A program made the position numbers and the translations under genes. The notes under the pieces were generated by a model. The model ran no database searches and was not told where the DNA came from. It saw only the letters and a list, made by a program, of their open reading frames with translations. Source: Chlamydiota bacterium (lineage in GTDB: Bacteria; Auribacterota; Tritonobacteria; UBA1439). From it: 64,000 nucleotides of DNA. Of this stretch, positions 48,373-63,691 are shown in pieces. Within the stretch, counting starts at the first letter, position 1. Every line of letters starts with the position of its first letter. Where the stretch lies: the NCBI GenBank assembly GCA_012729785.1, contig JAAYCL010000044.1, forward strand, positions 34,752-98,751. The letters run 5' to 3'.

Positions 48373-49104
48373 ATGGCAGCCAAACCGGCGTTGAGCGTCA
48401 TCATCTCCTGTTTCAATGAGGAGGAGAGCATCGGGGAGTGCCTGCGGAGGACGATGCAGGCCGTCCCCGACGCCGAGATCCTCGTCATCCACGGCGGGAG
48501 CGACAAAACCGCCGACATCGCCGAGGAGATGGCCCGCGGGAACCCGAAGATCACGGTCATCCGGAACCTCGACGACCGGGGAAAGGGGCACGCGATCAAG
48601 GTGGGGATCAGGCGGTCGTCCGCCGACGTGATGGTGCAGTTCGACGCCGACCTCCAGTTCATGCCCGAGGAGATACCGAAGGTCGTCCGGCCGATCCTCG
48701 CCGGCGAGGCGGATTTCTCGTTCGGCGCGCGCTTCATGAAGGAGTCCGACGTGGAGCGGTACGACTTCAGCTTCTTCCGTGTGATGGGCAACCGCATCGT
48801 GAACCGATACGTCAACCTCCTGACCCGGCAGCGGTTCTGCGACATCACGACCGGATTCAAGGCGTGGACGCGGGACGCGATCGAAAGCGTCGCCTTCAAG
48901 GACGACCGGTTTATCTACGAGGCGGAGATCGCGGTCAGGGCGGGGCTCGCGGGGCGCCGGTTCGCCATGGTGCCGATCACCTACTTCAACCGATACGGCG
49001 GCATCTCGGGACACGGGCGCGGGTGGAAGGAGCCGGTGAGCATCATCTGGACCGGCGTCAAGATCCTGATCTTCTCCACGCTGATACGCCTCTCCCTCTG
49101 GTGA
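48373..49104 (+). CDS. GT2-family glycosyltransferase (DPM1-like polyprenyl-phosphate sugar synthase)
   Basis: LSVIISCFNEEESI...DADLQF plus a C-terminal amphipathic or TM tail. Confidence 0.85.
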   Translation: MAAKPALSVIISCFNEEESIGECLRRTMQAVPDAEILVIHGGSDKTADIAEEMARGNPKITVIRNLDDRGKGHAIKVGIRRSSADVMVQFDADLQFMPEEIPKVVRPILAGEADFSFGARFMKESDVERYDFSFFRVMGNRIVNRYVNLLTRQRFCDITTGFKAWTRDAIESVAFKDDRFIYEAEIAVRAGLAGRRFAMVPITYFNRYGGISGHGRGWKEPVSIIWTGVKILIFSTLIRLSLW

Positions 49105-49245: not shown

Positions 49246-49692
49246 ATGCTGCGTCACGAGATGTGGAGGGACGAGCTCCAGGCGTGGATGATCGCACGGG
49301 ACAGCGCGACGCCGGCCGAGCTGCTGCGCAATGCCCGCCATGAAAGCCATCCGGCCCTCTGGCACGTTCCCCTCTACGGCGTCTCGCGGGCGACCCGCGA
49401 TCCGCGGGGGATGCAATTATTGCACCTGTGCATCGCCACGGGTGCGGTGTGCCTTTTCGTGCGCGCCGCGCCCTTTTCCCGGGTACAGAAAGTCTTGTGC
49501 GCCCTCGGCTACTTCCCCCTCTTCGAGTACGGGATCATCAGTCGGAGCTACTCCCTCGGGATGGCGCTGCTATTCCTCTTCTGCGCGCTCTGCTGCATGC
49601 GCGCGGACATCATCTGGATCGCCTGTACGCTGGCCCTCCTGTGCCAGACGAATCTCATCGGCCTCCTCCTCGCCGTATGCGCCGCGGTGTAG
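49246..49692 (+). pseudogene. Probable remnant (N-terminal ~150 aa) of a PMT_2/GT-C membrane glycosyltransferase
   Basis: MLRHEMWRDELQAWMIARD...HESHPALWHVPLY matches the first-loop motif of the GT-C paralogs, but the ORF stops after 3 TM helices. The in-frame upstream sequence encodes a hydrophobic stretch without a start codon. Confidence 0.4.
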
Positions 49693-49799: not shown

Positions 49800-52073
49800 T
49801 CACACCCCCCCGTAGACCTCCAGTTCCGCGATGGTCCAGGGGTAGAGGTTGTCCATCCGGGTGAGGGTCATCCGGATGTAGCGCGCCTTCACGGCGGGGA
49901 AGGAGATCCGGAAGAGCTTCTCCCCCGGGTCCGCGATCAGCCGCTGCGTGAAATCCAGGTACGCCCCCCCGTAGTCGACGGGCGTCCATCTCCTGCCATC
50001 GTTCGAGATCTCCACGCGGGGGTTCTTGGGGCACTCGTTCGCGCTCTTGAGGATCATCCCGATCCCGGCGATCTTTTCGCTACGCCCAAGGTCAAGCTGG
50101 AAGAAGAGGCCTGCAACCTGGTTGTGCCGCGTCGACCATGCCGTCTCCTCCCTGCCGTTGATGGCCAGGGAGGCATCCGACGGGTGCGGGTACGCCGTCG
50201 CCGTCCATCCGTGGCGGGGAAGGGGGGCGCCCGGGGGGATCGCGGGGGCGGAAGGGCCCGGGAGGATCTCGTAGAGGCGGTCGCCGCCGGCCTTCACCCT
50301 GAGGGCCAGTTCGCCACCGAAGCGGTCGAGGCGGTCGAGCGTCGCGCGCCAGTCGTAGGCCGCCTCGGGATGGGCGCGAACAAGCTGCCACTGCCACTCC
50401 AGGCGCGGGAGTCTCCCCACGTGCAGGACGACGTAGCGGACGCCGAGGGAGCGCAGGATGTCGATGGTCTCCCGCGAGGGGAAGCGCTTCATCTGGTCGG
50501 CGATGATCTTGTACTCGGGGTAGGCGAACGCCGTCTGGCCGTTGACGATTCGCCTCCCGTGGAAGGCGGCCCAGTACATCGCGGCGGTATCGAGACCCAA
50601 CGCCCCCCCGATCTCCTCGGGTTCCCAGGGCATCGGGAGTTCGATGACGGGAGCGGTGTCGCGTTGCGCCATCAACCATCGGTATACCGCGGGGGGGTCC
50701 CGGGGCACGCAATAGAACGGTTCACCCCACGTGGTGGGGGGGTAGCTGGCATATTCGATGGTCAGAATCGCGAGGAGCCCGGCGCCGAGCACGCCCCGAC
50801 GGCAGAGACGGGCCGACTGGAGCCGGTCGGCCAGCCACTGCACGCCGAAGCCGGCCATGACGCAGACGTAAATAAGCACGACCATCCCCAGCCCCCCGAG
50901 CGTCCTCAGCGCCGGGAAAAAACGATAGACGAGCATGGAGGGCCCGGGGCAGAGCTTCACCCCCGGCGTGAGACATATCCACGGCCCGAGCGAGAGCAGA
51001 AAGGCGGCGAGGCAGATGGCGAGCGCGAGCGGGGGCATGTACGCGGGGAGGAAACGCGCCGTCTTCCGGGCGGCAAAGAAACCGATGGCGGCGAGGATCC
51101 ACGCCGCCGCGCCGAAGAAGTTGACCTGCCGGGCGTTCAACGAGAATCCCGCGGTAGCCCTGCCGTAGAGGATGTTCCCCGGAGACGGCGAGAGATAACT
51201 CGAGATCGCGGGGCATATCTCCTGCACCGTCTCGGCGTCCCAGGCGACCCGCTCCTCGCCCATCCCCTTCCTGATCGCACGCAGGGGGGCCGTCGCCGCA
51301 GCCAGGCAGAGGGCGAGGAGGGCGAGCATGGCGGCGGCCCTCGCGAGCCCGCCGGGGCCGAGTCGTTTGAGATTGGCGAGGAGGCCGAAGGCGAGCACGG
51401 GAAAGAAGGCGAGGCCCAGGTAGAGCCCCCCCACCATGTCGGAGAGGCACTGGACGAGGTACAGCGCGAGAGAGCCGGCGAGGAGCGTGAAGCCGGGCGC
51501 CCCGCCGCGGGAAAGGCGTTCAGAGAATTTGAAGAGGAGAAGGATGGCGAAGACGACCCAGTAGTTCGTCACGAACGGGGTGTATTGGAAGTTGGCGGTC
51601 CTGACCGGACAGAAGCCGAATATGGCCCCCGAGACGATGGCCGGGAGCTCCCCGCCGGTGAGATGGCGCACAAGGATGTACATCGCGAAAGCGTCGAGGG
51701 CGAGGGTGAGGAGATGGAGGATGTTGTAGGAGCCCACCGGGCTCCGGGTGAGCGCGTAGAGCGGGATGTACGCGAGCCCGACCATGTAGTTGTGAAAGAC
51801 GGAGGGAAGCGTTTGTCGATGCGGATGGTAAAACGGTGCATCGAAGAGGTCCCGGGGATGCCGGAGGACGTTGGCCCTGAAAAACTGGAGCACGGATGCG
51901 AACATGAGCGTGTCGAAGTCGTTGTCGAGCGCCGTGTCCAAATGGAGCGGCAGCGGCCAGGAGAATCCGACCGCGAGCACGATGAACACGCACAGGATGG
52001 CGAATAACCTCATCATATACCCCTTGATGCAGTGCCGGTCCGCCGCGCGCGGAAACGAGAAAACGACGCGCAT
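49800..52073 (-). CDS. Large polytopic membrane protein (YfhO/GT-C-like) fused to a C-terminal F5/8 type C (discoidin/CBM32-like) domain
   Basis: At least 12 TM helices in the N-terminal 400 aa. The C-terminus ...AWSTRHNQVAGLFFQLDLG...ARYIRMTLTR...WTIAELEVYG is the discoidin pattern. The start may be the internal MMRLFAIL. Confidence 0.8.
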   Translation of the reverse strand: MRVVFSFPRAADRHCIKGYMMRLFAILCVFIVLAVGFSWPLPLHLDTALDNDFDTLMFASVLQFFRANVLRHPRDLFDAPFYHPHRQTLPSVFHNYMVGLAYIPLYALTRSPVGSYNILHLLTLALDAFAMYILVRHLTGGELPAIVSGAIFGFCPVRTANFQYTPFVTNYWVVFAILLLFKFSERLSRGGAPGFTLLAGSLALYLVQCLSDMVGGLYLGLAFFPVLAFGLLANLKRLGPGGLARAAAMLALLALCLAAATAPLRAIRKGMGEERVAWDAETVQEICPAISSYLSPSPGNILYGRATAGFSLNARQVNFFGAAAWILAAIGFFAARKTARFLPAYMPPLALAICLAAFLLSLGPWICLTPGVKLCPGPSMLVYRFFPALRTLGGLGMVVLIYVCVMAGFGVQWLADRLQSARLCRRGVLGAGLLAILTIEYASYPPTTWGEPFYCVPRDPPAVYRWLMAQRDTAPVIELPMPWEPEEIGGALGLDTAAMYWAAFHGRRIVNGQTAFAYPEYKIIADQMKRFPSRETIDILRSLGVRYVVLHVGRLPRLEWQWQLVRAHPEAAYDWRATLDRLDRFGGELALRVKAGGDRLYEILPGPSAPAIPPGAPLPRHGWTATAYPHPSDASLAINGREETAWSTRHNQVAGLFFQLDLGRSEKIAGIGMILKSANECPKNPRVEISNDGRRWTPVDYGGAYLDFTQRLIADPGEKLFRISFPAVKARYIRMTLTRMDNLYPWTIAELEVYGGV

Positions 52074-52190
52074 CGCCCGCGGGGGAATGGCGCACCTGTT
52101 TTCCCGGAATGTCTCTCGCAGATGATGGTGAGGCGCCCCTGCGGCGGTCTCCGCCCGCAGAAGTTAATCAAGAAACGGAGGGCAAGTCAA

Positions 52191-52214
52191 TCTGCGACAG
52201 CGTCTGCGACAGCG
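52191..52214. repeat. Perfect tandem 12-nt direct repeat TCTGCGACAGCG x2 flanked by GTCAA/TCAAT
   Basis: Copies at 52191-52202 and 52203-52214, in the 480-nt divergent intergenic region. Confidence 0.6.
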
Positions 52215-52430
52215 TCAATGCGCGGCATGAACACGAAACACAACCGCCGCTGCAAAAGCGATATCCGGCGGCCTGCGCAGTCGCCCGCGGATTCAGGATT
52301 TGCACTTTCAGCGTGTTTGTTCTTTAGTATACTTGCCCCCGCGCTGCGTCGCCGTCGGGTGCCCCGCTCGTGTGATACGGCAGCGCTAAATCCGGCTTGG
52401 CCCCGGTTTGTCTAACTTCTCTGCCGCGAG

Positions 52431-52441
52431 TATACTATAAT
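52431..52441 (+). promoter_or_regulatory. Candidate -10 region TATACTATAAT (consensus TATAAT at 52436-52441) for the downstream radical SAM operon
   Basis: Perfect TATAAT lies ~133 nt upstream of ATG 52575 in the lowest-GC stretch of the window. The -35 (TAACTT) is weak. Confidence 0.35.
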
Positions 52442-52574
52442 CGTTTTCGCATCCTTGCGTGCACACCGGCGCAGTGGCGTTTTTGTAAACTTTTGCGCGG
52501 CGCGCCGGACTGCAAGGAGAAGAAGAAGCCCCGCCACCCTCTGATGGCGGGCGTTGCATAACACGTTCTTGTCC

Positions 52575-53633
52575 ATGAAGATACGGCATTTATTTCGGGC
52601 GGGAAAGGCTGTTCTTGAGGAGCGCCTCCTGGGCAGGCGGCGGCCGCTGGCGGTCTGGATCGACATCACCAACCGCTGTCCCGCCGGCTGCGCCTACTGC
52701 GACATCTCCAAGAGCGGGAAGAAGGACATGCCGCTCGAGGGGCTCCTGCGCATCATGGACGAACTCGCGGCTATGGGGTGCGTGCGTCTTCACCTCACCG
52801 GCGGCGACCCCCTCATCAGGGACGATATCGGAGAGATCATCGGGCGCGGGAAAGGAATGGGATTCCTCGTGACCCTTTCCGTCCGCGAACACTTCGTCCG
52901 GAGGCGGCTCGAGGCCCTGAAGAACGCCGATATGGTGTTCCTGAGCTTCGAAGGGCTGAAGGATGTCCACGAGGAGCTCAAAGGTAGGGGGAGCTTCCCC
53001 CTGCTCCTGGATGCGTTCAAGGCGCTCAGGGAGCGCGGGATACGCACGCTCACCACCACGACGCTCACCAGGCGCAACAGGGAGTTCATCCCGTTCATCC
53101 TCGAAACCGCCCGGAACTACGGCTTCGTCACCAACTTCCAGTGCCTTCACTATCCGCTGGGGGCGGCGGGAGGGGGGGGGTTCCGCCGGGAGCACCCGCT
53201 GGCGGAACTGCTCCTCGACGAGGAGGAACACCGCCGCATCGGGAACGAGCTCATCGCCCTGAAACGCTCCGGTGCGCCGATCGCCGACTCGGAGATGTGT
53301 CTCAGGCGCATCTTCATCGACTGGGAGGATCACCGCGCGATTTTTCTCCCGCGCCGGCCCCCGGGGCACCCGCCGTGCCGGGCGGGCCGGCTCTTCTGCC
53401 AGATCGACGTGGAGGGGATCGTCTACCCGTGCGGATCCACTTTCGAACGGGCCCGGAAGGAGCTCTACCTGAACGCCCTCGAGGTCGGGATGCGCAAGGC
53501 GTTCCGCGCCCTCCCCGAAAGCTCCTGCGCGGCGTGCGTGCAGGCGTGCCACGTGGAGCTCAACCTGCTCCTGTCGCTGAATCCGGGAACGATCATGCAC
53601 TGGTGCCGGCAGCTCATCGGAAAGAGGATATGA
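52575..53633 (+). CDS. Radical SAM / SPASM-twitch domain protein
   Basis: ITNRCPAGCAYCD is the CxxxCxxC motif. C-terminal Cys CRAGRLFCQ...CGS...CAACVQAC. Alternative TTG start at 52554. Confidence 0.8.
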   Translation: MKIRHLFRAGKAVLEERLLGRRRPLAVWIDITNRCPAGCAYCDISKSGKKDMPLEGLLRIMDELAAMGCVRLHLTGGDPLIRDDIGEIIGRGKGMGFLVTLSVREHFVRRRLEALKNADMVFLSFEGLKDVHEELKGRGSFPLLLDAFKALRERGIRTLTTTTLTRRNREFIPFILETARNYGFVTNFQCLHYPLGAAGGGGFRREHPLAELLLDEEEHRRIGNELIALKRSGAPIADSEMCLRRIFIDWEDHRAIFLPRRPPGHPPCRAGRLFCQIDVEGIVYPCGSTFERARKELYLNALEVGMRKAFRALPESSCAACVQACHVELNLLLSLNPGTIMHWCRQLIGKRI

Positions 53634-55063
53634 ACGGTTCCGGGAAGCGGAAAAGGGGGCGGGTGGCGCTCGTCAACCTGCCGCAGGTCGTTCCCGACCT
53701 GATGTACACCCCGCGCGTGAGGAAGGCCTACACGGACACGGCGCAGATACTCCCCAACCTCAGCCTCGCCTACCTCGCGGGGCACCTGGAGAAGTCTGGG
53801 TTCGAGGTCTGCTACGTCGAGGCGTTCGCCCTCCGGCTCTCCGCGGAGGAGATCGTCCGGCGGCTCCGAGAATTCGATCCGATCGCGGTGGGGTATAACC
53901 TGATCACGGAGACGTTCCTCGAGTCGCTCGCCTACATCGAGCGGATCAAGCAGGCGTTTCCCGTCCCGGTCATCGTCGGGGGGATGCACCTCTCCCTCTA
54001 CCCCCGCGAGACCCTCTCCCACGAATGCATCGACTACGGAATCGTCGGCGAGGGGTGGAGAAGTTTCCCCCAACTGCTCCATGCGATCGCCCAGGGAGGG
54101 CGGGACGTCGGCGGCATCGACGGTCTGGTACGGAGGGACGACGGAGGGGTGACCTGCGTTCCCCCGACCGCCGACAGCGTCCCGCTCGACCGGGTCCCGT
54201 TCCCGGCGCGCCACCTGCTGCCCAACGAGGCCTACTCGTGCGTGATGTCGAAGCGCCACCCTGTGACGGTGATGATCTCCAGCTACGGCTGCCCGTTCAA
54301 GTGCGCCTACTGCGACGTGGGCACCATCCGCCACCAGATGCGCAGCGCCGAGAGCGTTATCGCCGAGATGGAGGAGTGCAGGAAGCGGCACGGGATCCGC
54401 GAGATATGGTTCCAGGACGAGACGTTCACGCTCAACCCCGGGCGCGTCCAGGCCATCTGCGAGGCGATCCGCCGGAAGAAGCTCGACGTCACCTGGTCGG
54501 TGCGGACGCGCGCGGATCTCGTCTCGCCTGACATGCTCGCGTCGATGAAGGCCGCCGGCTGCTTTAAGATGCACTTCGGCGTCGAATCCGCCGACCCCGA
54601 CGTGCTCTCCCGCCTCGGGCGCTCGATGTCCATCGAGCGGATGCGGGAGGCGTTCTCCTGGGCGCGGGAGGCCGGCATCTCCACGCTCGCGTTCTTCATG
54701 ATAGGAAACCCCGGGGAGGACCGTCCCGCCCTCAAGCGCTCCATCCGGTTCGCGAAAACGATCCCCTGCGACTTCATCCAGGTGAACAAGTTGACCCCGT
54801 GCCCCCCCTCGCGACTGTACAGCCAGGTGGTGAAGGAGACGGGGAGGGACTTCTGGGCGGAGTACACCCTCGGCAGACGCGGGGCGATCGCGGAGATGGG
54901 GAACTACTTTTCCGTCTTCCCCCCTGGCGAGCTCGACCGCCGGCAGAAACAATTCTTCAGGGCGTTTTACTACCGGCCCTCGTACGTGGCCCGCAGGCTC
55001 CTCGCTGTCCGCTCGTGGCACGAGTTCGCGACGCTCGCCAGGGCGGCTCTCTCGATCCGATAG
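53630..55063 (+). CDS. Cobalamin-binding (class B) radical SAM protein
   Basis: ATGA overlap with the upstream gene. RVALVNLP...LSLAYLAGHLEKSGFEV (B12-binding domain). SSYGCPFKCAYCD. Confidence 0.85.
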   Translation: MNGSGKRKRGRVALVNLPQVVPDLMYTPRVRKAYTDTAQILPNLSLAYLAGHLEKSGFEVCYVEAFALRLSAEEIVRRLREFDPIAVGYNLITETFLESLAYIERIKQAFPVPVIVGGMHLSLYPRETLSHECIDYGIVGEGWRSFPQLLHAIAQGGRDVGGIDGLVRRDDGGVTCVPPTADSVPLDRVPFPARHLLPNEAYSCVMSKRHPVTVMISSYGCPFKCAYCDVGTIRHQMRSAESVIAEMEECRKRHGIREIWFQDETFTLNPGRVQAICEAIRRKKLDVTWSVRTRADLVSPDMLASMKAAGCFKMHFGVESADPDVLSRLGRSMSIERMREAFSWAREAGISTLAFFMIGNPGEDRPALKRSIRFAKTIPCDFIQVNKLTPCPPSRLYSQVVKETGRDFWAEYTLGRRGAIAEMGNYFSVFPPGELDRRQKQFFRAFYYRPSYVARRLLAVRSWHEFATLARAALSIR

Positions 55064-55069
55064 GCGCCG

Positions 55070-56161
55070 ATGAGGAAAAAGTACTCCCGTGTGCTCATCC
55101 GCCGGTTGCGCTCCGGCCGCCCGCTCCGGGCGTTCCGACAGGCGGTGAACGCCCTCGCCGTGATCGGGTCGGCCTGGAGGGGGAGGACGTTCTGCGCCCC
55201 GATCTCGGCCACCCTCGCGCTCACCTACCGCTGCACCCAGCGCTGTGCGATGTGTAACTTCCCGCAGCGGGTGCGAAGGGGTGCCGAAGAGATCCCCGGA
55301 GAGAGGGCGAAGGAGATCATCGGGGAACTGGCCAGGATGGGGGCGTACGGCGTCTCCTTCTACGGCGGCGAGCCGCTTTTGAGGAGCGACATCGTCGAGC
55401 TCGCGGCGGTCGCCCACCGCGCGGGGCTGACCGTGCACATACCCACCAACGGGATGCTGCTGACGGACTCCGTTGCGCGCGCGCTCGTCGAAGCCGGCGT
55501 CGATCTGATCACCCTCTCGATGGACGGGGCGACGCCGGAGATGCACGACCGGCAGCGCGGCGTGCCGGGCGCCTTTGCACGCCTGGGCGAGGCCGTCCGC
55601 AACGTCCTCTCCGCCCGGCGCCTGCTCGGCCGGGGCTGCCACTGCGCCCTCGCGGCCACGCTCACCGAGGGGAACGTTGATGACGTCGCGGGGATCGTGA
55701 ATGCCGCCCGCCGGCTCGGGGCGGACACCCTCTCGGTTTTCGAGGCGCAGGATCTCGGCGGCCTGTCGCAACCGTCCGCGGCGGAACGGGCGGCGTCGCT
55801 GCTGCGCGCCAACGAGCGGTTGCGCGAAGAGAAGATGCGTCTGCCCGACTTCATCGACAACTCCGAGGCGTACCTCGACTACTGCAGGCGGCTCTTCTCG
55901 GGGGAGAGGCCCGTTCTCAGGTGTTTCGCCCCGTACACCGACATCTTCATCGACGCGTATGAGGACGTCTACGCGTGCAACTATTTCTTCGGGATGGCGC
56001 AGCCGGTCGGGAACCTGGGAGGGGGGAGTGTGCGGGAGTTCTGGCGCTCAACTGCGTATGATTCCGCGCGGAGGGAGCTGAAGGGCTGCGCCGCGTGCAA
56101 CTACATGTGCCATCGGGAACTGAGCCTCATGTTCAACAGGGCGTCCCCGTCCGCCGTATGA
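55070..56161 (+). CDS. Radical SAM / SPASM domain protein
   Basis: LTYRCTQRCAMCN is the CxxxCxxC motif. C-terminal Cys VLRCFAP...VYACNYF...CAACNYMC. Confidence 0.85.
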   Translation: MRKKYSRVLIRRLRSGRPLRAFRQAVNALAVIGSAWRGRTFCAPISATLALTYRCTQRCAMCNFPQRVRRGAEEIPGERAKEIIGELARMGAYGVSFYGGEPLLRSDIVELAAVAHRAGLTVHIPTNGMLLTDSVARALVEAGVDLITLSMDGATPEMHDRQRGVPGAFARLGEAVRNVLSARRLLGRGCHCALAATLTEGNVDDVAGIVNAARRLGADTLSVFEAQDLGGLSQPSAAERAASLLRANERLREEKMRLPDFIDNSEAYLDYCRRLFSGERPVLRCFAPYTDIFIDAYEDVYACNYFFGMAQPVGNLGGGSVREFWRSTAYDSARRELKGCAACNYMCHRELSLMFNRASPSAV

Positions 56162-56192
56162 TACAATATCGTGTTCCCGTACAGCCATTCCG

Positions 56193-57566
56193 ATGAAGAT
56201 CGCGCTCGTTTTCCCGCGGTTGAATTCTAGGTCGGGGGACCCGCCCCTCGGGCTTGGGTACCTCGCCTCCAACCTGCCCGCAGACCTCGGGGCGCGGGTG
56301 ACCCTCGTGGACGGGACGTTCCTCAAATCGGCGGAGGAATTTCACGCCAGGCTCGAAGAGACTCGCCCCGACCTCGCGGGCATCTACTTCGACACGATGA
56401 GCTACGAACGCGGGATCGAGGCTGCCAGGCGGGCGAGGGCGATGGGGGCGTTCGTGGTGGCCGGGGGCCCGCACGCGACGGTCCTCCCCGAGACACTCGT
56501 GGATCATGCGGACATCGTGGTGCTGGGCGAGGGTGAGCGGACCTTCGCCGAGGTCGTCCGGGCCTCGGCGTCCCGCGATCTGAAGGGGGTACGGGGCATC
56601 TGCTACCGGGAGGGAGGCCGGATCGTCACGAGCGCACCCCGCGAGCCGGTCGCGGATTTGGACGCCTTGGAGTTCCCGGACCGGCGCCTGTTCGATATGG
56701 AGAGGTACACGGCGACCTGGCACTACCTCGACATCCTCGGGATGAAGATCAGGGGGACGACGGTCGTCGCCTCCCGGGGCTGCCCCTTCCGGTGCACCTA
56801 CTGCCAGCCCACGCTGGTGAAGCTGTTCGGCAGCCGGCTGAGGATGCGGAGCCCGTCGAACATCGTCGCGGAGATCGCGGGGCTGAAGCAAGACCACGGC
56901 ATCAGGGGGATCTTCTTCCACGACGACACGCTGACGGCGAACCGGCGCTGGCTCGAGGAGCTCTGCGACCGCCTCATCGCGGACCGGCTCGATATCCTGT
57001 GGGCGTGCAACACGCGGGCCGACATCACCGATGACGCGACGTTCCGGAAGATGCACGAGGCGGGCGTCCGGTATCTCCACATCGGCGCCGAGTCGGGCAG
57101 CCAGCGGATACTCGACGACGTCTACAAAAAGCGGATACGCCTCGAGAACATCAAGACGACCATCGCCGCGGCGAGGCGGGCGGGGATCAGGGCGGGCTGC
57201 TTTTTCATGCTCGGCGCCCCGACGGAGACAAGGGAGGAGCTCCGCAGGACCATACGATTCGCCTCCTCGCTCGACATAGACGAGGCGACGTTCAACATCG
57301 CTACCCCCCTCCCCGGGACATACCTGTTCGACATGGTGACGGAGCTCGGCTACAAAATCAGCGACAACTACACGGATTTCAACTACTATTCACGCAGGGC
57401 GTTCGAGGACCCGAACATAGACACCCGGACGCTGAAGAGATTCCAGCGGAAGGCCCTCTTCAGCTTCTACCTGCGGCCCCGGCGCTGGGGGTACATCCTG
57501 CGGCATTTCGTGTCGCCCGGGGGCATCCCGAAGCTCGTCACCAAGGTCAGGAGATTCTTCCGATGA
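56193..57566 (+). CDS. Cobalamin-binding (class B) radical SAM protein
   Basis: MKIALVFPRL...LGLGYLASNL; ASRGCPFRCTYCQ. Confidence 0.85.
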   Translation: MKIALVFPRLNSRSGDPPLGLGYLASNLPADLGARVTLVDGTFLKSAEEFHARLEETRPDLAGIYFDTMSYERGIEAARRARAMGAFVVAGGPHATVLPETLVDHADIVVLGEGERTFAEVVRASASRDLKGVRGICYREGGRIVTSAPREPVADLDALEFPDRRLFDMERYTATWHYLDILGMKIRGTTVVASRGCPFRCTYCQPTLVKLFGSRLRMRSPSNIVAEIAGLKQDHGIRGIFFHDDTLTANRRWLEELCDRLIADRLDILWACNTRADITDDATFRKMHEAGVRYLHIGAESGSQRILDDVYKKRIRLENIKTTIAAARRAGIRAGCFFMLGAPTETREELRRTIRFASSLDIDEATFNIATPLPGTYLFDMVTELGYKISDNYTDFNYYSRRAFEDPNIDTRTLKRFQRKALFSFYLRPRRWGYILRHFVSPGGIPKLVTKVRRFFR

Positions 57567-59008
57567 AGGTTAAGTTCGTCAACGCAACCCTCGGGGGCGA
57601 CTACAGCGCGCTCGACATCGCCATCACCTGCCTGGCCACCTACCTGAACGAGAGGACGCCGCATCGCGCCACGATTACGGACCTGACGTTCAGGCGGAGG
57701 GTGTGGAAAGAAAAGCTGCTGGCCGACATCGACCGGGATGCGCCGGACCTGATCGGCATCTCCGCCAACACGATGTACATGCAGTACGTGAAGGAGGTCA
57801 TCGCGCACATCGCGCGGCACCGCAACCTCCCGGTTATCCTCGGCGGCTACCACGCGTCGCTCAAACCCGAGGAGACGCTCTCGCTTCCCGGCGTGGACGC
57901 CCTTTTCATCGGAGACGGGGAGCTCACCCTCGCCGACTATCTAAACCGCCTCGAGGGGGGCGGGGACGTCTCGCAGATCCCCGGCGTCTGGACGAAGCGC
58001 AACGGAACCATCGTCAAGACCGGCCGGGGGTGTTTCATCAAGGAGATCGACAGTCTCCCGATCCCCAACTGGGACCTCTGGGAGGATCTGGACCTCTACT
58101 TCTACTTCCTGGGGATGCTCTACATCATCGGCACGCGCGGCTGCCCGTTCAAGTGCACCTACTGCGACGCGCACGGCATCTCGGAGGCGGTGGAGGGGCA
58201 GTACTACCGGGTGCGGGACCCGGTCAGCTACGCGCAGGAGATCGCCTTTCAGTGGGAGAAATATAAGCACCGGAACATGCGGCTCGCCCAGCTCTTCGAC
58301 CAGATCCCCACCGCCAGCATCGCGTGGCTGCGTCCGTTCTGCGAGTCCTACATGCAGACGAGCGCCTGGGGAAAACTGCGGTACAGCATGTTCGCCCGCA
58401 TCGACCAGCTCGACGAGGAGAAGCTGGAGCTGCTGGGCAAGTCGGGGTGCGCCCTCCTGCGCGTCGGGATCGAGTCCGGGAACGACTTCATCCGCAACGA
58501 GGTCTACGGCAAGCATATCTCCCGGGAGAAGATTAAGGAGATCTTCAGGATCGCCAAGGCGAACGGCATCGGCTTCACGGCGTTCAACATCCTCGGGGGC
58601 CCCGCCGAAACCCCGGCGACGCTGCGGGACACCATCCGGCTCGCCATGGAGCTCGACGCGAACCGGACCGCCTTTTTCATCTACAAGCCGTTCACCGAGG
58701 AGGGATGCCGGCAGATCTACCAGTACGGCGGATGGATAGACGATGCGCGGTGGAAGGCGGCCGACAACATCACCTTCGGCGCCGTGGTCGAATCGAAGAA
58801 GCTAAGGGTCAGGACGGTGGAACGGTACCAGAAAATCGCCTACTTCCTCACCTTCGGCAGACGCCTGCTCAGGATGATCCTGCGCCAGAAGCTACGGTAC
58901 TTCAGGAACCTCTTCGTCTACCTCCGGCGGGGGTGGCGGTACGGCCTGCACTTCGGCTACACGATGATCTACTACCACATCTACGGCTACGACAACGTCG
59001 ACAAATGA
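57563..59008 (+). CDS. Cobalamin-binding (class B) radical SAM protein
   Basis: ATGA overlap with the upstream gene. GTRGCPFKCTYCD. Confidence 0.85.
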   Translation: MKVKFVNATLGGDYSALDIAITCLATYLNERTPHRATITDLTFRRRVWKEKLLADIDRDAPDLIGISANTMYMQYVKEVIAHIARHRNLPVILGGYHASLKPEETLSLPGVDALFIGDGELTLADYLNRLEGGGDVSQIPGVWTKRNGTIVKTGRGCFIKEIDSLPIPNWDLWEDLDLYFYFLGMLYIIGTRGCPFKCTYCDAHGISEAVEGQYYRVRDPVSYAQEIAFQWEKYKHRNMRLAQLFDQIPTASIAWLRPFCESYMQTSAWGKLRYSMFARIDQLDEEKLELLGKSGCALLRVGIESGNDFIRNEVYGKHISREKIKEIFRIAKANGIGFTAFNILGGPAETPATLRDTIRLAMELDANRTAFFIYKPFTEEGCRQIYQYGGWIDDARWKAADNITFGAVVESKKLRVRTVERYQKIAYFLTFGRRLLRMILRQKLRYFRNLFVYLRRGWRYGLHFGYTMIYYHIYGYDNVDK

Positions 59009-60429
59009 GGATTGCCTTCGTCCACAGCTTCCCCCAGGAATACCACGGCATCATGTACCTCGCCGCGGCGCTCAAGGCCGCGGGGCACGAGTGCGAGGTG
59101 TTCGTCACCTCGCTCGAGAAGAACATCCTCGGGGAGCTCGCCCGTTTCGCCCCCCGCCTCGTGGGTTTCTCCTGCACCACCGGCGAGCACCTCGCGATGG
59201 CGCGCCTTGCCGGACGGGTCAGGCGGGAGCTCGGCGCGATGACCGTCTTCGGCGGAGCGCACGCGACCGTCTGCCCCGAGATCGTCGAGCACGAGGGCGT
59301 GGACGCCGTCTGCGTCGGGGAGGGGGAGGACGCCCTCTGCGAGCTCGCGGCGGTCCTGGAGCGGAACGGAGAGATCGCCGAAATCAGGAACCTTTGGGTC
59401 AAGCGCGGCGGCGCCGTGGTGAAGAACGAACCCAGGCCGCTGCGGGAGGATCTCGAGAGCCTCCCCCGGCCCGACTGGTCCCTGTACTACAAGTACCGGT
59501 TCCTCCGCGAGAAGACGACGAAGACGTTCATCGGGAGCCGTGGGTGCCCGTTCCGCTGCACCTTCTGCACGGACCCGTATTTCCAGTCGCTCTACCGCGG
59601 GAAGGGGAGGTACCTCAGGATGCGGGCTCCGCGGAGCTTCGCCGCGGAGATACGGGAGCAGAAGGAGATCCTGCGCTTCGACACGGTCACCTTCGACGAC
59701 GAGGTCTTCGTCTGGAACAGGGACTGGCTGCGCGAGTTCCTCCCTCTCTATCGCAGGGAGGTCGGCCTCCCGTTCTTCTGCGGCGTCAGGGCGGACACCC
59801 TGACCGAGGAGATCGTGGGCGAGTTGCGCGAGGCCGGCTGCTACGGGATGTCGTTCGGCGTCGAGAGCGGGAGCGAATTCGTCCGGAACGAAATAGGGGG
59901 GAAGGGGATCAGCAACGAGCAGATCGTCTCGGCGGCCCGGTGGGTGAAGGCGCGGGGGATCATTTTGAGGACGACCAGCATGTTCTGCATGCCGGGCGAG
60001 ACCCCCGCGCGGGCCTGGGAGACCGTGCGCCTCAACGTCGACTGCCGGGTCGACCACCCGTTCGCCTACGTCTACCAGCCCCTCCCGAAGACCGGGATGT
60101 ACGACTACGCCAAGGCGCGCGGCTACCTCGGCGACGGGTTCAACTTCGACCGGCTCGAGCCGCTCCACCTCGGCGACAATCCTTTGCGGCTGGAGAGGAA
60201 GGGGGAAATCCTGAACATCCAGAAGCTCTTTTACCTCGCGGTCCGCCACCCGCGCCTCATCCCCCTGCTGCGGCTCCTCGTGAAACTCCCCCCGAACCCG
60301 CTCTTCAACGGAATCTTCAAGATCTGCCTGGTGAGGAACTACTCGCGCTACAAGAAACTGGGCCTGCGCAAGACCCTCGCGATCGCCCTGAAGACGCGCG
60401 GTATCGCGCAGGAGGTCGAACCGCTATGA
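59005..60429 (+). CDS. Cobalamin-binding (class B) radical SAM protein
   Basis: ATGA overlap with the upstream gene. MRIAFVHSFPQEYHGIMYLAAALKAAGHE; GSRGCPFRCTFCT. Confidence 0.85.
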   Translation: MRIAFVHSFPQEYHGIMYLAAALKAAGHECEVFVTSLEKNILGELARFAPRLVGFSCTTGEHLAMARLAGRVRRELGAMTVFGGAHATVCPEIVEHEGVDAVCVGEGEDALCELAAVLERNGEIAEIRNLWVKRGGAVVKNEPRPLREDLESLPRPDWSLYYKYRFLREKTTKTFIGSRGCPFRCTFCTDPYFQSLYRGKGRYLRMRAPRSFAAEIREQKEILRFDTVTFDDEVFVWNRDWLREFLPLYRREVGLPFFCGVRADTLTEEIVGELREAGCYGMSFGVESGSEFVRNEIGGKGISNEQIVSAARWVKARGIILRTTSMFCMPGETPARAWETVRLNVDCRVDHPFAYVYQPLPKTGMYDYAKARGYLGDGFNFDRLEPLHLGDNPLRLERKGEILNIQKLFYLAVRHPRLIPLLRLLVKLPPNPLFNGIFKICLVRNYSRYKKLGLRKTLAIALKTRGIAQEVEPL

Positions 60430-61706
60430 CGGTTGAACGGTGCGACGCGATCGTGCTCGGGGGAGGGCCCGCCGGCCTCGCCGCCGCGGATCGTCTGGCG
60501 GAGGGGGGGATGCGGGTCGTCCTTCTCGAGGCGGACACGGAGCTCGGCGGCCTGGCGAAATCGTTCCGGCAGGACGGGAAGTGGATCCCGATCACCTACC
60601 ACCACGTCATGGGGATCGACACCGCCACCCACCGGTTCCTGAAAAGGTTCGGTTTGTGGGAATCGATGGTCTGGAAGAGCATCAAGGTCGTCTTCTGGTT
60701 CCACGGGAAGGCGTACCCGCTCGTGCAGCCGTGGCACATCCTCGGCTTCGCCCCGCTCACCCCCCTGGAACGGCTCCGCCTCGTCCGTTTCGGCGTGGTC
60801 TGCTATTTCAAGAAGAACTGGCACGCGTTCGACGCGGTCAGGAGCGACGAATGGATCGAGCGGATGCTCGGCGGGAGGGCGCGGAAGGCGATCTTCGAGC
60901 CGCTCGCCGAGATGGAGTTCGGGACGCCCCTCTCCGCGGTGAGCAGCGGCTGGCTCGGCTACCGCCTCCACGAGAGCGCCCGGAACAGGTCCAGCTACGG
61001 CTACCCGTCCAAGGACCTGAAGGCGCTCATCGACGGGATCGCCGCGGCCGTCGAGAAGAAGGGCGGGCGCATCATGCGGGGGGTCGAGGCGGTCCGGGTG
61101 GGGCGGGGGACGGTGGAGGCCGTCGGCCCGAACGGGACGCGGCACCGCCTGGAGTCGCCGAGGATCGTCAGCGCCGTCCCGCCGGAGATACTGCTGCGCA
61201 TACACGAGGAGCCGGGGCGGCTGGATCCGGAACTCTCCACGATCCGCTACCGCCCCCTCATCTGCATGTGCTTCGGCTCGCGCCACCTCATCTCGCCGCA
61301 CTACTGGAACGTCTTCATGGAGCCGGTCCTCCGTTTCGGGGGCATCTTCAACCACACCGCCCTCTTCCCGGAGGGGGGGGCGCACGGGGAATATGTCTAC
61401 TACCTGTTCAGCTACGCCGACGAGGAATCCCCCCTCTACCGGACCTCCGAGGAGGAACTCGCGGCGATCTACCTCGAGGACATCCGCACCGTCTGCCCGA
61501 AATTCGACTATCTTTGGCGGAGGATATTCAAGATACCGTACAGCACGCCCCGGTACGGCCTCGGGTACAAAAACCCGCCCGTCGAGAGCGTCTACCCCGG
61601 CCTCTTCTTCGCCGGTGTGTACCGCAGGTACCCCTGCACCAGGACGATGCACACGGCGCTGCTGAGCGGCTGCGAGACGGCGGCGGCGGTTCTGAAGAAG
61701 GGGTGA
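60426..61706 (+). CDS. FAD/NAD(P)-binding oxidoreductase (amine-oxidase/phytoene-desaturase-like fold)
   Basis: ATGA overlap with the upstream gene. DAIVLGGGPAGLAAADRLAEGGMRVVLLEA is the dinucleotide-binding GxGxxG motif. Confidence 0.8.
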   Translation: MTVERCDAIVLGGGPAGLAAADRLAEGGMRVVLLEADTELGGLAKSFRQDGKWIPITYHHVMGIDTATHRFLKRFGLWESMVWKSIKVVFWFHGKAYPLVQPWHILGFAPLTPLERLRLVRFGVVCYFKKNWHAFDAVRSDEWIERMLGGRARKAIFEPLAEMEFGTPLSAVSSGWLGYRLHESARNRSSYGYPSKDLKALIDGIAAAVEKKGGRIMRGVEAVRVGRGTVEAVGPNGTRHRLESPRIVSAVPPEILLRIHEEPGRLDPELSTIRYRPLICMCFGSRHLISPHYWNVFMEPVLRFGGIFNHTALFPEGGAHGEYVYYLFSYADEESPLYRTSEEELAAIYLEDIRTVCPKFDYLWRRIFKIPYSTPRYGLGYKNPPVESVYPGLFFAGVYRRYPCTRTMHTALLSGCETAAAVLKKG

Positions 61707-61710
61707 GCGG

Positions 61711-62466
61711 ATGGAACGGCCCCCGCCTGCGCCGTCGAATGTGCCGCCGGGGAAACGGATCCTGATCGTCATCCCCGTCTACAACGAGCGGGAGAACATC
61801 GTCGGCCTGCTTGACCAGCTCCTCGCCATCCCGCCCGCCCTCGACGTCCTCCTCATCGAGGACAACTCCCCGGACGGCACGGGGGCGGTCGTGGACGCCT
61901 ACAGCCGGGAGAATCCCCGCGTCGCGGTCATACACCGGCCCGGAAAACTCGGCCTCGGCACCGCCTACGTCCGCGGGTTCGCCTACGCCATCGGGAACGG
62001 GTACGACTACGTCATCGAGATGGACGCCGACAACTCCCACGACCCCAAGTACATAGCCCCGTTCATCGAGGCGATCGAGGGATACGACCTCGTGATCGGC
62101 TCCCGTTATCTGAAGGGGGTGAGCTCGGTCAACTGGCCGTTCTGGCGCCTCGTGATGAGCTACCTCGCCAACAAGTACGTGCGCTTCGTGTCGGGGATGC
62201 CGTACACCGACTGCACCGGGGGCTACAAGATCATCTCCCGCCGTGCGCTCGAGGCGATCGACCTCCGCGAGGTGAAGTCCAACTCCTTTTCGTTCCAGTT
62301 CGAGCTTCTCTACCGGATGCACGCGAAGGGGATGCGGATCAGGGAGATTCCCATCATCTTCTACGAGCGCGCCATCGGGAAGTCCAAGATGGACAAGAAG
62401 ACGTTCTTCGAGGCGCTTTTGAAGGTAATCCAGCTCCGCCTGAAGCGTGCGCGTGGGCGGCTCTGA
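61711..62466 (+). CDS. GT2-family polyprenyl-phosphate sugar synthase (Dpm1/Ppm1-like)
   Basis: ILIVIPVYNERENI...LLIEDNSPDGT...VIEMDADNSHDP is the classic DPM1-type pattern. 251 aa. Confidence 0.85.
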   Translation: MERPPPAPSNVPPGKRILIVIPVYNERENIVGLLDQLLAIPPALDVLLIEDNSPDGTGAVVDAYSRENPRVAVIHRPGKLGLGTAYVRGFAYAIGNGYDYVIEMDADNSHDPKYIAPFIEAIEGYDLVIGSRYLKGVSSVNWPFWRLVMSYLANKYVRFVSGMPYTDCTGGYKIISRRALEAIDLREVKSNSFSFQFELLYRMHAKGMRIREIPIIFYERAIGKSKMDKKTFFEALLKVIQLRLKRARGRL

Positions 62467-62469
62467 GAG

Positions 62470-62820
62470 ATGAAGACGCCGTCCTCTTCGCGCGAAAAGG
62501 CTTTTCGTGGCGCGCGTCCCGCGCCGAAACGCTTGCTGAAGACGCTCGGCGAGGTCGCGGCAATCCTCGGGATAGCTCTCCTCGTGGTGTTCCTCTTCTT
62601 GCATGTGCCCATGAACGCCGATTCATATGTTCCCTACACCAACCTCGCGTGGGAGCACTTCATGTCCATGTCGATTGGGGCGTGGAGTACATCAAGGCGC
62701 TCTACGGGAACCGGGACCAGTGCAACGTGGCGGCGTGGCCGATGGATTCCGACGAGGTCGTGCGGAGGGTGTGCGACATCTGCCGGCAGACAGGCAGAAC
62801 GCCGATGTTCATACGGATGA
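62470..62820 (+). CDS. Hypothetical small membrane-anchored protein, probably frameshifted into ORF 62649..63080
   Basis: The N-terminus (MKTPSSS...ILGIALLVVFLFLHVPMNADSYVPYTNLAWEHF) looks genuine. The rest of this frame is GC-driven junk, while the overlapping frame from about 62660 looks protein-like. Confidence 0.35.
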   Translation: MKTPSSSREKAFRGARPAPKRLLKTLGEVAAILGIALLVVFLFLHVPMNADSYVPYTNLAWEHFMSMSIGAWSTSRRSTGTGTSATWRRGRWIPTRSCGGCATSAGRQAERRCSYG

Positions 62821-62986
62821 AGGAGCGGTCAGGCACCGACCTCGCGTTTTTGAAGAGGAACTTCTGGGGGCTCGTGCCGATGCAACTCGACTGCGATGCC
62901 GGCGCGTGGGAGATCTGGTGCCGGCCCGTGAGAAGGTGGAGGAGATACTCGCACGGGGGATACGGCGCGGCCCCCGGGACCGCACA

Positions 62987-63691
62987 CTACCCGCGCAGCC
63001 GGTACTTCAGGAGCGCGCAGAAGATCCTCGGCACGTCCCGCCAACTTATCTTCTTTCCCTGGTCGAAGCGCCGCGGGTAGTACCTGACGGGGACCTCATG
63101 GATGCGGTGCCCGCGCTTGAGGAGCTTGGCCGCGATTTCCACCTCGATGCCGAAGCCGTCGGATTTGATGTCGAGTGACCGGAAGATGTCCGTTCTGATG
63201 AGTTTGTAGCCGATCATGACGTCCGTGACGGTGGCGGTGAAGAGGACGTTGACCAAGAAATTGAGGGCGAGCCCCGCGAGGAACACCGCCCTGTCGGCCG
63301 ACGATCCCTGGACGGCGTGGTGGTAGTCGTAGTTGATCATCCGGGTCCCGAAGACGACGTCCGAGACCCCCTCCCGCACGGGCTCCAGCAAAAAACGATA
63401 GTCGTCGGGGTCGAGCTCCAGATCGGCGTCCTGGATGATGACGTAGTCGCCGGTCGCGTGCGCGAGGCCGGTCCGTATCGCCGCCCCCTTTCCGCTGTTG
63501 CGCTCGTGGCGGACGATCGTCGCCTTCCCCTGCAGCGCATCGCGGGCGAGATCCCCGGAGCCGTCGGTCGAGCAGTCGTCCACGACGATGAGTTCCTTCT
63601 CGGCGGGGATCTGCACCGCGAGGACCTTCCGCGCGATATCGAGGATCGTGCTTTTCTCGTTGTAGCAGGGGATGATGATGCTGAGTTTCAT
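62987..63691 (-). CDS. GT2-family glycosyltransferase (DPM1-like)
   Basis: [14 protein letters not shown]...[10 protein letters not shown]...IIQDADLE. 234 aa. Confidence 0.85.

Follow-up and report, generated by a model that had tools for sequence, protein, structure and literature searches.

A candidate pathway for the radical and flavin-dependent tailoring of lipid-linked sugars encoded by an eight-gene operon of an uncultured Chlamydiota bacterium

Operon organization

The window analysed here is a stretch of 64,000 nt from a Chlamydiota bacterium (assembly GCA_012729785.1, contig JAAYCL010000044.1, positions 34,752 to 98,751 of the forward strand). The host is an uncultured anaerobic PVC-group MAG that is labelled Chlamydiota, with close cluster mates labelled Ca. 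Auribacterota. An operon of eight genes on the + strand (52575–62466) encodes six radical SAM enzymes, one flavoenzyme and one GT2-type glycosyltransferase. The gene order is a radical SAM enzyme with a reduced SPASM/twitch motif, a B12-binding radical SAM enzyme (B12-rSAM), a radical SAM–SPASM enzyme, three consecutive B12-rSAMs, an FAD oxidoreductase and a Dpm1-like GT2. All eight ORFs begin with ATG and contain no stop codon other than the terminal one, and all are backed by a GC3 frame plot with values of 0.8–0.99 in the coding frame; the same eight genes were called on five metagenome contigs by independent gene callers. The ORF checks and Pfam searches bear out the gene order and the B12-rSAM, FAD and GT2 domains given in an initial annotation, as well as its account of the junctions: ATGA overlaps are found at 53630, 57563, 59005 and 60426, and the other three junctions have gaps of 6 nt (55063/55070), 31 nt (56161/56193) and 4 nt (61706/61711), so that all but one of the gaps are no longer than 7 nt. 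Overlaps of 4 nt also occur at four of the 14 junctions of the upstream + strand gene array; since they are common in the genome, those of the operon indicate an ordinary tight operon, and the unusual part is its gene content. Upstream of gene 1 is a divergent intergenic region of ∼500 nt (52074–52574), the probable promoter region, in which the GC3 plot shows no frame-specific signal and a single weak σ70-like match (9/12 positions) is located at 52408–52436 on the + strand. Genes 1–8 are predicted to be read as a single transcript. We found no published description of this operon.

Domain assignments of the encoded proteins

Gene 1 (52575–53633, + strand; 352 residues) encodes a radical SAM protein (Pfam Radical_SAM, 74.6 bits) with a reduced SPASM/twitch-like C-terminal cysteine motif, C268-x12-G-x4-C286 and C318-x2-C321(-x3-C325). 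The cysteines C35/C39/C42, C268, C286, C318 and C321 are invariant in 14 homologues, and the family is rare, with 17 clusters at E ≤ 1e-10. The best PDB folds for the AF2 model (pLDDT 86) are SuiB, BlsE, SkfB, PqqE and anSME, with DesII also among the fold matches. Gene 3 (55070–56161, + strand; 363 residues) matches Radical_SAM (80 bits) and SPASM (25.7 bits against a cutoff of 21.5), and its best NCBIfam matches, AhbD, MftC and PqqE, all score far below their cutoffs. The initial description of both as radical SAM–SPASM genes therefore holds for gene 3, whereas gene 1 has only the reduced motif and gave no SPASM match in the Pfam scan. No clear orthologue of gene 3 is present in related operons, where the SPASM genes of loci L006 and L091 are just 20–25% identical to it, and gene 3 is probably a lineage-specific addition.

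Genes 2 (53630–55063; 477 residues), 4 (56193–57566; 457 residues), 5 (57563–59008; 481 residues) and 6 (59005–60429; 474 residues), all on the + strand, match both the B12-binding (PF02310, 53–71 bits) and Radical_SAM (PF04055, 63–97 bits) families above the cutoffs, with scores of 71 and 97 bits, respectively, for gene 2. The CxxxCxxC motif is present in all four as CPF[KR]C[AT][YF]C, and their domain content is that of Class B (B12-binding domain) radical SAM enzymes. Genes 2 and 4 both have HpnJ (TIGR03471) as their highest-scoring NCBIfam model, but it was rejected as an assignment for either, with scores of 145.3 and 184.0 bits, respectively, against a cutoff of 577.6; gene 4 also scores below the cutoff for BchE (174 bits). 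Among solved structures, the closest relative of gene 4 is AprD4 (PDB entry 6fd2; 94 bits), which is a dehydratase and not a methylase, and the chemistry is thus not readable from the domain. None of the radical enzymes of the operon reaches the cutoff of any curated NCBIfam family, so that no reaction type can be assigned to them on this basis. Gene 6 is 31% identical to gene 5; among the related operons compared, it has an orthologue solely in the close relative L006 (78% identity), and it too is probably lineage-specific.

Some of these similarities could point to the maturation of a ribosomal peptide or protein, with SPASM enzymes introducing cross-links, B12-rSAMs performing C-methylation as in proteusins and the GT2 acting as a glycosylating accessory. 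The maturases SuiB, SkfB, CteB, PqqE and MftC are found among the proteins nearest to gene 1 by fold and to gene 3 by family, and ApyD is among the best matches of genes 5 and 6, but the maturase scores are all far below the family cutoffs. Furthermore, no precursor-like ORF is found in or beside the operon: the small ORFs within 52074–52574 are Arg-rich and out of frame, and the intergenic gaps of the operon are too short for a precursor-peptide gene. No RRE and no peptidase or transporter genes were detected, and every conserved neighbour is a glycan gene. We consider peptide maturation to be highly improbable.

Gene 7 (60426–61706, + strand; 426 residues) encodes an FAD-dependent oxidoreductase (Pfam Amino_oxidase/NAD_binding_8) of the PRK07233 family (NF005560; 263.9 bits against a cutoff of 252, residues 9–424 aligned to positions 4–430 of the 435-position profile), a family that carries no assigned function. 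Plant phytoene desaturase gives the best superposition with the predicted fold of gene 7, at a sequence identity of 18%. The closest named sequence family is that of the hydroxysqualene dehydroxylase HpnE (TIGR03467), which was rejected as an assignment owing to a score of 89.8 bits against a cutoff of 283. No carotenoid or squalene context surrounds gene 7, and the hopanoid genes shc, hpnH and hpnG are absent from the window. Conserved motifs in the family of gene 7 (YHH, RLHES-RNRD-YGYP and FGGIFNHT) contain many His, Tyr, Trp and Arg residues, which is suggestive of a polar substrate.

Gene 8 (61711–62466, + strand; 251 residues) encodes a Dpm1/DPMS-like GT2 and is a predicted polyprenyl-phosphate sugar synthase (Pfam Glycos_transf_2, 107.7 bits). 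The best PDB match is the DPMS of P. furiosus (PDB entry 5mlz; 106.8 bits), with the MDAD and GSRY motifs aligned, followed by ArnC and GtrB. The GT-A domain, the DxD motif and the nearest relatives all fit a Dpm1/DPMS-type GT2, and the NCBI annotation names the protein polyprenol monophosphomannose synthase, whereas scores against the curated equivalogs AglJ, PpgS and ArnC are all below the cutoffs. Gene 8 has no transmembrane domain. Its probable activity is the glycosylation of polyprenyl phosphate with a nucleotide sugar as donor.

The glycan locus and its conserved modules

The operon is part of a glycan locus that spans 35 kb or more and contains GDP-sugar genes, three short Dpm1/ArnC/AglJ-like GT2s and several GT-C-like membrane proteins. 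Six B12-rSAMs of the locus lie inside the window, and a seventh is located just past its end. An upstream block (43836–49104, + strand) comprises, by Pfam and NCBIfam, three NAD epimerase/dehydratase-family genes, a sugar-1-phosphate nucleotidyltransferase, a GHMP kinase and a second Dpm1/AglJ-like GT2. The best NCBIfam matches in this block (GDP-L-fucose synthase, 260 bits; mannose-1-phosphate guanylyltransferase, 127 bits; HddA, 133 bits; AglJ, 110 bits) are all below the cutoffs, and the block is likely to be a supply line for a GDP-sugar. Between this block and the operon, a gene on the − strand (49800–52073) encodes a polytopic membrane protein of 757 residues with ∼7 hydrophobic segments in residues 14–416, a long loop after the first transmembrane segment and a C-terminal discoidin domain (F5_F8_type_C, 54 bits, residues 632–748). 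The membrane part matches no Pfam family; the protein is a candidate, not proven, GT-C-type user of a lipid-linked sugar. The membrane proteins of the window score 19–20 bits against PMT_2, below the cutoff of 26.1, and have a GT-C-like topology; these two features are the basis on which we regard them as putative GT-C proteins. On the downstream side are an ArnC/ArnD-like pair (GT2 and Polysacc_deac_1), a methyltransferase and another B12-rSAM. We detected no flippase of the GtrA type in the window, an observation that counts against the pathway proposed below, and no gene called in the window region or the downstream flank matches a GtrA-type Pfam family; small ORFs inspected for a flippase (49246–49692, 62470–62820, 62627–63178 and 62682–63080) match no Pfam family.

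Two sets of genes from the operon recur elsewhere. In 76 of the 120 best clusters of a fusion protein, from Elusimicrobiota, Omnitrophota and PVC-group MAGs, a B12-rSAM of the gene 2 type and a DPMS-like GT2 are joined in one chain. The best operon match of the fusion proteins is gene 2 (34% identity, 308–323 bits), and in both fused loci examined (L007 and L017) a gene-1-like radical SAM gene directly follows the fusion gene. The adjacency of genes 1 and 2 is also kept in L006 and L008, in which the gene 2 orthologues are 68–69% identical. Among 36 distant gene-1-like loci, a B12-rSAM lies within 5 kb in 20 and a Dpm1-like GT2 within 10 kb in 14.

The second set, which was absent from the initial annotation, is a trio of FAD (gene 7), B12 (gene 4 type) and B12 (gene 5 type) enzymes that is found again in five distant loci, of which two look archaeal. 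Gene 4 orthologues (42–49% identity) adjoin gene 7 orthologues in L089, L091, L093 and L094 and share a locus with them in L092; the orthologue in the close relative L006 is 76% identical. Gene 5 orthologues (45–62% identity) are present in L089, L092, L093 and L094, which have genome GC contents of 23–46%, and by these comparisons gene 5 is the most conserved member. The trio is accompanied by PMT_2 proteins in L093, by polysaccharide deacetylases in L094 and by extra GT2s in L089. In L092 its neighbours are AglB, DegT and a GtrA_DPMS_TM fragment, which was found solely in this locus, with a cis-prenyltransferase in the same gene string. Smaller modules also exist: in L090, which has no radical SAM gene, orthologues of genes 8 (54%) and 7 (41%) come after membrane proteins of the DUF2079 and PMT_2 families, and in L091 a tightly coupled series comprises DUF2079, a GT2 (48% identical to gene 8), a SPASM radical SAM enzyme, the FAD enzyme and a B12-rSAM of the gene 4 type. 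We take the DUF2079 and PMT_2 proteins of these two loci as probable GT-C-type transferases. The modules also occur with GFO_IDH and methyltransferase genes.

By these comparisons, the strongest conserved unit is genes 7-4-5, with genes 1-2 as the other. The suggestion that each SPASM/B12 pair acts as a unit thus survives for genes 1 and 2 (in L006, L008 and the fused loci) and fails for genes 3 and 4, since gene 3 has no clear orthologue in related operons.

The same neighbourhoods bear on where the radical enzymes act. They could modify a soluble nucleotide sugar or a finished glycan, with gene 8 simply transferring a pre-modified sugar. The sugar-modifying radical SAM enzymes DesII, BlsE, AprD4 and GenK take soluble substrates; AprD4, BlsE and DesII are among the structural relatives of genes 4 and 1, and GDP-sugar genes lie upstream. 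Fusion and synteny alone are compatible with radical action either before or after the GT2 step. However, the fusion to a lipid-phosphate GT2 and the minimal GT-C, GT2 and FAD module of L090 tie the tailoring to a lipid-linked step, and we regard the soluble route as quite unlikely.

Alternatively, gene 7 and the B12-rSAMs could modify the polyprenyl carrier chain rather than the sugar, with gene 8 then glycosylating a special carrier. Possible reactions would be saturation or desaturation by the phytoene desaturase-like gene 7 and methylation or cyclization by the B12-rSAMs, as by HpnP/HpnR, Gmm and GrsA/B. The known radical SAM modifiers of isoprenoid lipids are B12-domain enzymes (review PMC13459092). 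A lipid-tail target is also favoured by the nearest fold and family of gene 7, phytoene desaturase and HpnE, which act on isoprenoid chains, and by the cis-prenyltransferase beside the trio in L092. Against this, the HpnE score of gene 7 is far below the cutoff, many polar and aromatic residues are conserved in its family, and the modules are accompanied by genes for sugar modification (deacetylases, DegT, GFO_IDH and methyltransferases). In addition, several separate sets of GT2 and radical SAM genes are present in the locus, which would be needless for a shared carrier and would fit sugar-specific tailoring better. Modification of the carrier chain is in our view unlikely.

Proposed pathway and comparison with known systems

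The gene structure, domain identities, conserved neighbourhoods and fusions described above are direct observations. We give about an even chance to the interpretation that the operon is a line for making a polyprenyl-phosphate-linked monosaccharide and tailoring it by radical and flavin chemistry before its use by GT-C enzymes. On the cytoplasmic side of the membrane, soluble gene 8 would load polyprenyl phosphate with a sugar, probably taken from a GDP-sugar made by the upstream genes. The lipid-anchored intermediate would then be reworked by gene 7 and the radical SAM enzymes in modules (gene 1 with gene 2, and gene 7 with genes 4 and 5), to which genes 3 and 6 would be lineage-specific additions. 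We consider the head-group sugar to be the likeliest target, ahead of the polyprenyl tail, and by analogy to HpnJ, Cds, AprD4 and GenK candidate reactions include C-methylation, dehydration, oxidation and ring rearrangement. The finished donor would be flipped and used by the nearby GT-C-type transferases on a glycan or glycoprotein of the envelope. Transcription as one unit, the substrate, the sequence of the steps and every reaction type are what we infer from these observations. The initial annotation had placed the radical enzymes, the flavoenzyme and the GT2 on a single lipid-linked sugar or carrier; the fusions, the position of genes 7 and 8 beside DUF2079/PMT_2 proteins and the lack of a precursor peptide give this comparative support, while the stepwise chemistry that it envisaged is conjectural.

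More tentatively, it is possible that uncultured bacteria and archaea share a pathway in which cobalamin-type radical SAM enzymes and a phytoene desaturase-like flavoenzyme rebuild polyprenyl-phosphate monosaccharides, which GT-C enzymes then install, as a new class of envelope sugar donor. The possible reactions include C-methylation, deoxygenation, ring contraction and carbocycle formation, and the signature genes would be the FAD-B12-B12 trio and the B12-rSAM–GT2 fusion. Lipid-linked monosaccharide donors such as Dol-P-Man, Und-P-Ara4N and decaprenyl-P-arabinose are central to envelope assembly and are drug targets; to our knowledge, few modifications of the lipid-linked form have been described so far, none of them radical. 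If the proposal is correct, radical SAM chemistry acts on lipid-linked donors in many uncultured anaerobic bacterial phyla, possibly also in archaea, and novel sugars or carrier lipids are predicted in their envelopes. It would also give a first biological role to many unannotated B12-rSAMs, PRK07233 flavoenzymes and B12-rSAM–GT2 fusions. The small modules of L090 (GT2 and FAD) and L091 (GT2, SPASM, FAD and B12) are tractable for biochemistry.

The arrangement of a Dpm1/ArnC/GtrB-type GT2 beside polytopic GT-C-like proteins resembles GtrA/GtrB/GtrC, ArnC/ArnD/ArnT and Ppm1 with GT-C mannosyltransferases. ArnD of the Arn pathway removes a formyl group from the lipid-linked sugar ahead of its transfer, and the ArnC/ArnD-like pair lies just downstream of the operon. 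Here, by contrast, no GtrA flippase was detected and gene 8 lacks the membrane domain, and we know of no three-component system with radical SAM enzymes or a PRK07233 flavoenzyme. Gene 7 shares its predicted fold with phytoene desaturase, but it is set apart from that enzyme by the low identity and from HpnE by the low score. In aminoglycoside biosynthesis, GenK, GenD1, AprD4 and BtrN similarly combine B12-domain and twitch/SPASM radical SAM enzymes on sugar carbons; however, their substrates are soluble pseudo-oligosaccharides, they belong to antibiotic clusters, and the similarity of gene 4 is confined to the radical SAM core. HpnJ and the calditol synthase Cds are radical SAM enzymes that are thought to rearrange a sugar already on a membrane lipid (PMC13459092). 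HpnJ, of the HpnI/HpnK/HpnJ system for hopanoid side chains, has a B12-binding-type domain and is the family that NCBIfam ranks first for genes 2 and 4, but the lipid predicted here is a polyprenyl phosphate carrier and not a hopanoid or GDGT. In mycobacteria, the flavoenzyme of the DprE1/DprE2 system oxidizes decaprenyl-phosphoribose, and the product is used by GT-C arabinosyltransferases. Although DprE1 is an FAD enzyme of the vanillyl-alcohol-oxidase family, the fold of gene 7 is that of an amine oxidase/phytoene desaturase and no DprE2-like reductase is present here, the logic is the same as that of the minimal GT-C, GT2 and FAD module of L090.

Organization of the operon and its host

The operon comprises eight forward-strand genes (52575–62466), each with an ATG start and a single terminal stop: gene 1 (52575–53633), gene 2 (53630–55063), gene 3 (55070–56161), gene 4 (56193–57566), gene 5 (57563–59008), gene 6 (59005–60429), gene 7 (60426–61706) and gene 8 (61711–62466). 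Consecutive genes meet in ATGA overlaps at 53630, 57563, 59005 and 60426, and the remaining gaps measure 6, 31 and 4 nt. ORF lists for the window are noisy because its GC content is 62–71%; a GC3 frame plot gives a single coding frame over 52.6–62.5 kb, and gene callers find the identical eight-gene set on five independent metagenome contigs. The gene map of the initial annotation is correct. Four-base overlaps also occur at four of the 14 junctions of the upstream forward-strand array, and packing of this kind is that of an ordinary tight operon. The intergenic spaces are too small for any terminator. A promoter and terminator scan gave weak consensus matches and nothing stronger, the promoter-like ones lying at 52408–52436 and at 56133–56162, just 5′ of the only sizeable gap; no tRNA or Rfam match was detected in the window.

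Gene 8 is followed on the same strand by two small ORFs that overlap each other and are candidates for a ninth operon gene. The first (62470–62820) has one hydrophobic segment; the second (62649/62682–63080), with a GC3 of 0.85–0.89, is called as 132 residues on other contigs and overlaps the 3′ end of the convergent GT2 gene. Pfam assigned no family to the small ORFs flanking the operon, including these two.

The exact operon proteins were found in NCBI metagenome-assembled genomes (MAGs) labelled Chlamydiota, and cluster mates above 90% identity carry the label Candidatus Aureabacteria/Auribacterota. Judged from these labels, the host is an uncultured PVC-group bacterium. Published Auribacterota MAGs have been reported as fermentative anaerobes that carry cobalamin transporters (PMC9324843).

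Domain composition of the operon proteins

Pfam identifies B12-binding and Radical_SAM domains in genes 2, 4, 5 and 6, Radical_SAM and SPASM in gene 3 and Radical_SAM alone in gene 1. The latter retains a reduced form of the SPASM/twitch cysteine pattern, invariant within its family, and its confidently predicted structure superposes on SuiB, BlsE, SkfB, PqqE, anSME and DesII; a fold search returned generic SPASM/twitch neighbours only (TM about 0.6), which left the function no better defined. All six radical enzymes score below every curated NCBIfam cut-off, and the best sub-threshold names are HpnJ and BchE (genes 2 and 4) and ApyD and BchE (genes 5 and 6). The six B12-binding radical SAM proteins (B12-rSAMs) of the window, which include those encoded at 29351–30796 (reverse strand) and 36378–37844 (forward strand), share 25–34% pairwise identity and all carry CxxxCxxC; they are thus old paralogues, not recent duplicates.

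Gene 7 encodes an amine-oxidase-type FAD domain and exceeds the NCBIfam cut-off only for PRK07233, a model with no assigned function. Gene 8 is a GT2 glycosyltransferase that aligns over its full length with the catalytic domain of Pyrococcus dolichol-phosphate mannose synthase (DPMS), DAD motif included; the membrane domain of the Pyrococcus enzyme is absent. Membership of the hopanoid pathway was considered and rejected: HpnJ, HpnE, HpnH and HpnB topped several match lists, but with scores well short of cut-off, and the vicinity has no hopanoid core genes; the pathway is retained as an analogy.

Surrounding locus and conserved modules

The glycan locus that encloses the operon extends over at least 35 kb. 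The window contains nine radical SAM genes in a span of about 33 kb, and a tenth lies just beyond its end. A first upstream stretch contains a GT2, a B12-rSAM, a GT2 with a transmembrane domain, an AlgX-like protein and two membrane proteins weakly similar to PMT_2; a second contains a DUF362 protein with a C-terminal 2×[4Fe–4S] ferredoxin domain (35170–36288, forward), a B12-rSAM and a paralogue of gene 1 (39082–40143, forward; 32% identical). The two B12-rSAM genes upstream of the operon and the gene 1 paralogue are interspersed with genes for GT2s and GT-C-like membrane proteins. DUF362-like homologues (31–34% identity by tblastn) recur in two distant loci with gene-1-like genes (L016 and L051), and the DUF362/ferredoxin protein may be an electron donor to the radical enzymes. 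The third stretch contains a PurH-like gene, three epimerase/dehydratase genes, a guanylyltransferase-like gene, an HddA-like kinase and a Dpm1/AglJ-like GT2. The divergent PurH-like protein (42238–43776, forward) has an AICARFT_IMPCHas domain scoring 155 bits versus the PurH cut-off of 402. Its gene is flanked by a GT-C-like gene on one side and the sugar-nucleotide genes on the other, an odd location for a purine enzyme, and the protein may have been recruited as a formyl transferase or some other transferase. Divergent from the operon, a gene at 49800–52073 (reverse) encodes a 757-residue polytopic membrane protein with about seven N-terminal membrane segments, to which Pfam assigned no family, and a C-terminal discoidin (F5/8 type C) domain.

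Downstream of gene 8, a convergent reverse-strand operon (window 62987 to about 66715; 12562–16290 of L001, a locus that continues past the window end) encodes a third Dpm1/AglJ-like GT2, a polysaccharide deacetylase (Polysacc_deac_1), a SAM methyltransferase and a seventh B12-rSAM, followed by more GT-C-like membrane proteins. The GT2 and deacetylase pair resembles ArnC/ArnD, which by analogy suggests a second lipid-linked amino-sugar tailoring line. A RiPP cluster was rejected, since neither a precursor ORF nor conserved peptide-related neighbours are present, and we regard peptide maturation as very improbable.

The gene 1 family is rare (17 clusters at E ≤ 1e-10). The close relative L006 has the same seven-gene core with a gene 1 orthologue of 54% identity, the SPASM gene placed before gene 1 and a GT-C-like 549-residue protein after the gene 7 orthologue. 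Another locus (L008) retains the gene 1/gene 2 pair alone (62% and 68% identity) amid different B12-rSAMs. In a genome-contig search with the gene 1 alignment, the best identity among the matches listed was 62%, and these matches include remoter gene-1-like genes in Omnitrophota, Planctomycetota, Elusimicrobiota, Myxococcota, Patescibacteria and Woesearchaeota MAGs. Among the 36 distant gene-1-like loci listed, a B12-rSAM lies within 5 kb in 20 and a Dpm1-like GT2 within 10 kb in 14. Two Elusimicrobiota loci (L007 5692–12444 and L017 6963–10156) encode a GT2–rSAM fusion (715 residues) and a fusion of a gene-2-type B12-rSAM with a DPMS-like GT2 domain in one chain (722–733 residues), with a gene-1-like rSAM immediately 3′ of the latter. 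The B12-binding/Radical_SAM/GT2 architecture is present in 76 of the best 120 clusters matching this fusion protein. L007 also contains a fusion of LPG_synthase_TM (flippase-like) with a methyltransferase, and runs on into a giant ORF of 16 218 residues.

A second, independent line of evidence comes from the gene 7 family. Three loci (L089, L093 and L094) carry a trio in the exact order FAD enzyme, gene 4 type, gene 5 type, with GT2s, PMT_2 proteins, deacetylases, a GFO_IDH oxidoreductase and methyltransferases as neighbours across the set. L091 has the order DUF2079, gene 8 orthologue (48%), SPASM-rSAM, gene 7 orthologue and gene 4 orthologue; L090 reads DUF2079, PMT_2, gene 8 orthologue (54%) and gene 7 orthologue (41%), with radical enzymes absent. 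These loci, together with L092 (below), range from 23 to 46% GC, and identities across them are 45–62% for gene 5, 42–49% for gene 4 and 31–47% for gene 7. In the 23% GC genome, a gene adjoining the trio (L093 9693–10236) runs off the locus and joins rSAM-SPASM and B12-rSAM in a single chain of more than 1100 residues. The seam between the two modules coincides with the 31-nt gap in the operon and with a 115-nt gap at the same point in L006. The proposal that each SPASM/B12 pair acts as a unit holds for genes 1–2 only, and the strongest conserved unit is genes 7–4–5.

Proposed function and relation to known systems

Both independent modules, genes 1–2 and genes 7–4–5, point to a Dpm1-type GT2 and, via the genes around them, to GT-C-type transferases. 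In the simplest reading, gene 8 would make a polyprenyl-phosphate sugar, the remaining operon enzymes would rework it and GT-C enzymes would use up the product. We infer all of this chemistry; the fusions and the conserved modules near GT2 and presumed GT-C genes strengthen the earlier idea of radical tailoring tied to a lipid-linked sugar synthase. We give roughly even chances to tailoring of the sugar at the lipid-linked stage. The sugar is favoured as the target by the several GT2/rSAM sets in one locus, by sugar-modifying neighbours, by polar conserved motifs in gene 7 and by HpnJ and AprD4 as the nearest named relatives. An archaeal-looking locus (L092 5029–15954) places orthologues of genes 7, 4 and 5 with Cdc6, AglB/STT3, DegT, GFO_IDH, a GtrA_DPMS_TM fragment and a cis-prenyltransferase, which links the trio to N-glycosylation and carrier-lipid synthesis. 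Tailoring of the lipid tail, also raised in the initial annotation, is considered unlikely, and action on a soluble or polymeric sugar slightly more so.

ArnD and DprE1/E2 are precedents for altering a sugar already on a lipid. HpnJ and Cds are further examples in which a lipid-attached sugar is thought to be modified (PMC13459092). Literature searches on radical SAM enzymes with polyprenyl, dolichol, undecaprenyl, glycosyltransferase, AglB or Omnitrophota, and on DUF2079 and Auribacterota, found no paper on the operon or the fusions, and we found no published description of such radical enzymes with a PRK07233 flavoenzyme in a lipid-linked glycosylation framework. The framework itself, a Dpm1/ArnC/GtrB-like synthase with GT-C transferases, is already known; the operon described here extends it by six radical SAM enzymes and a PRK07233 flavoenzyme.
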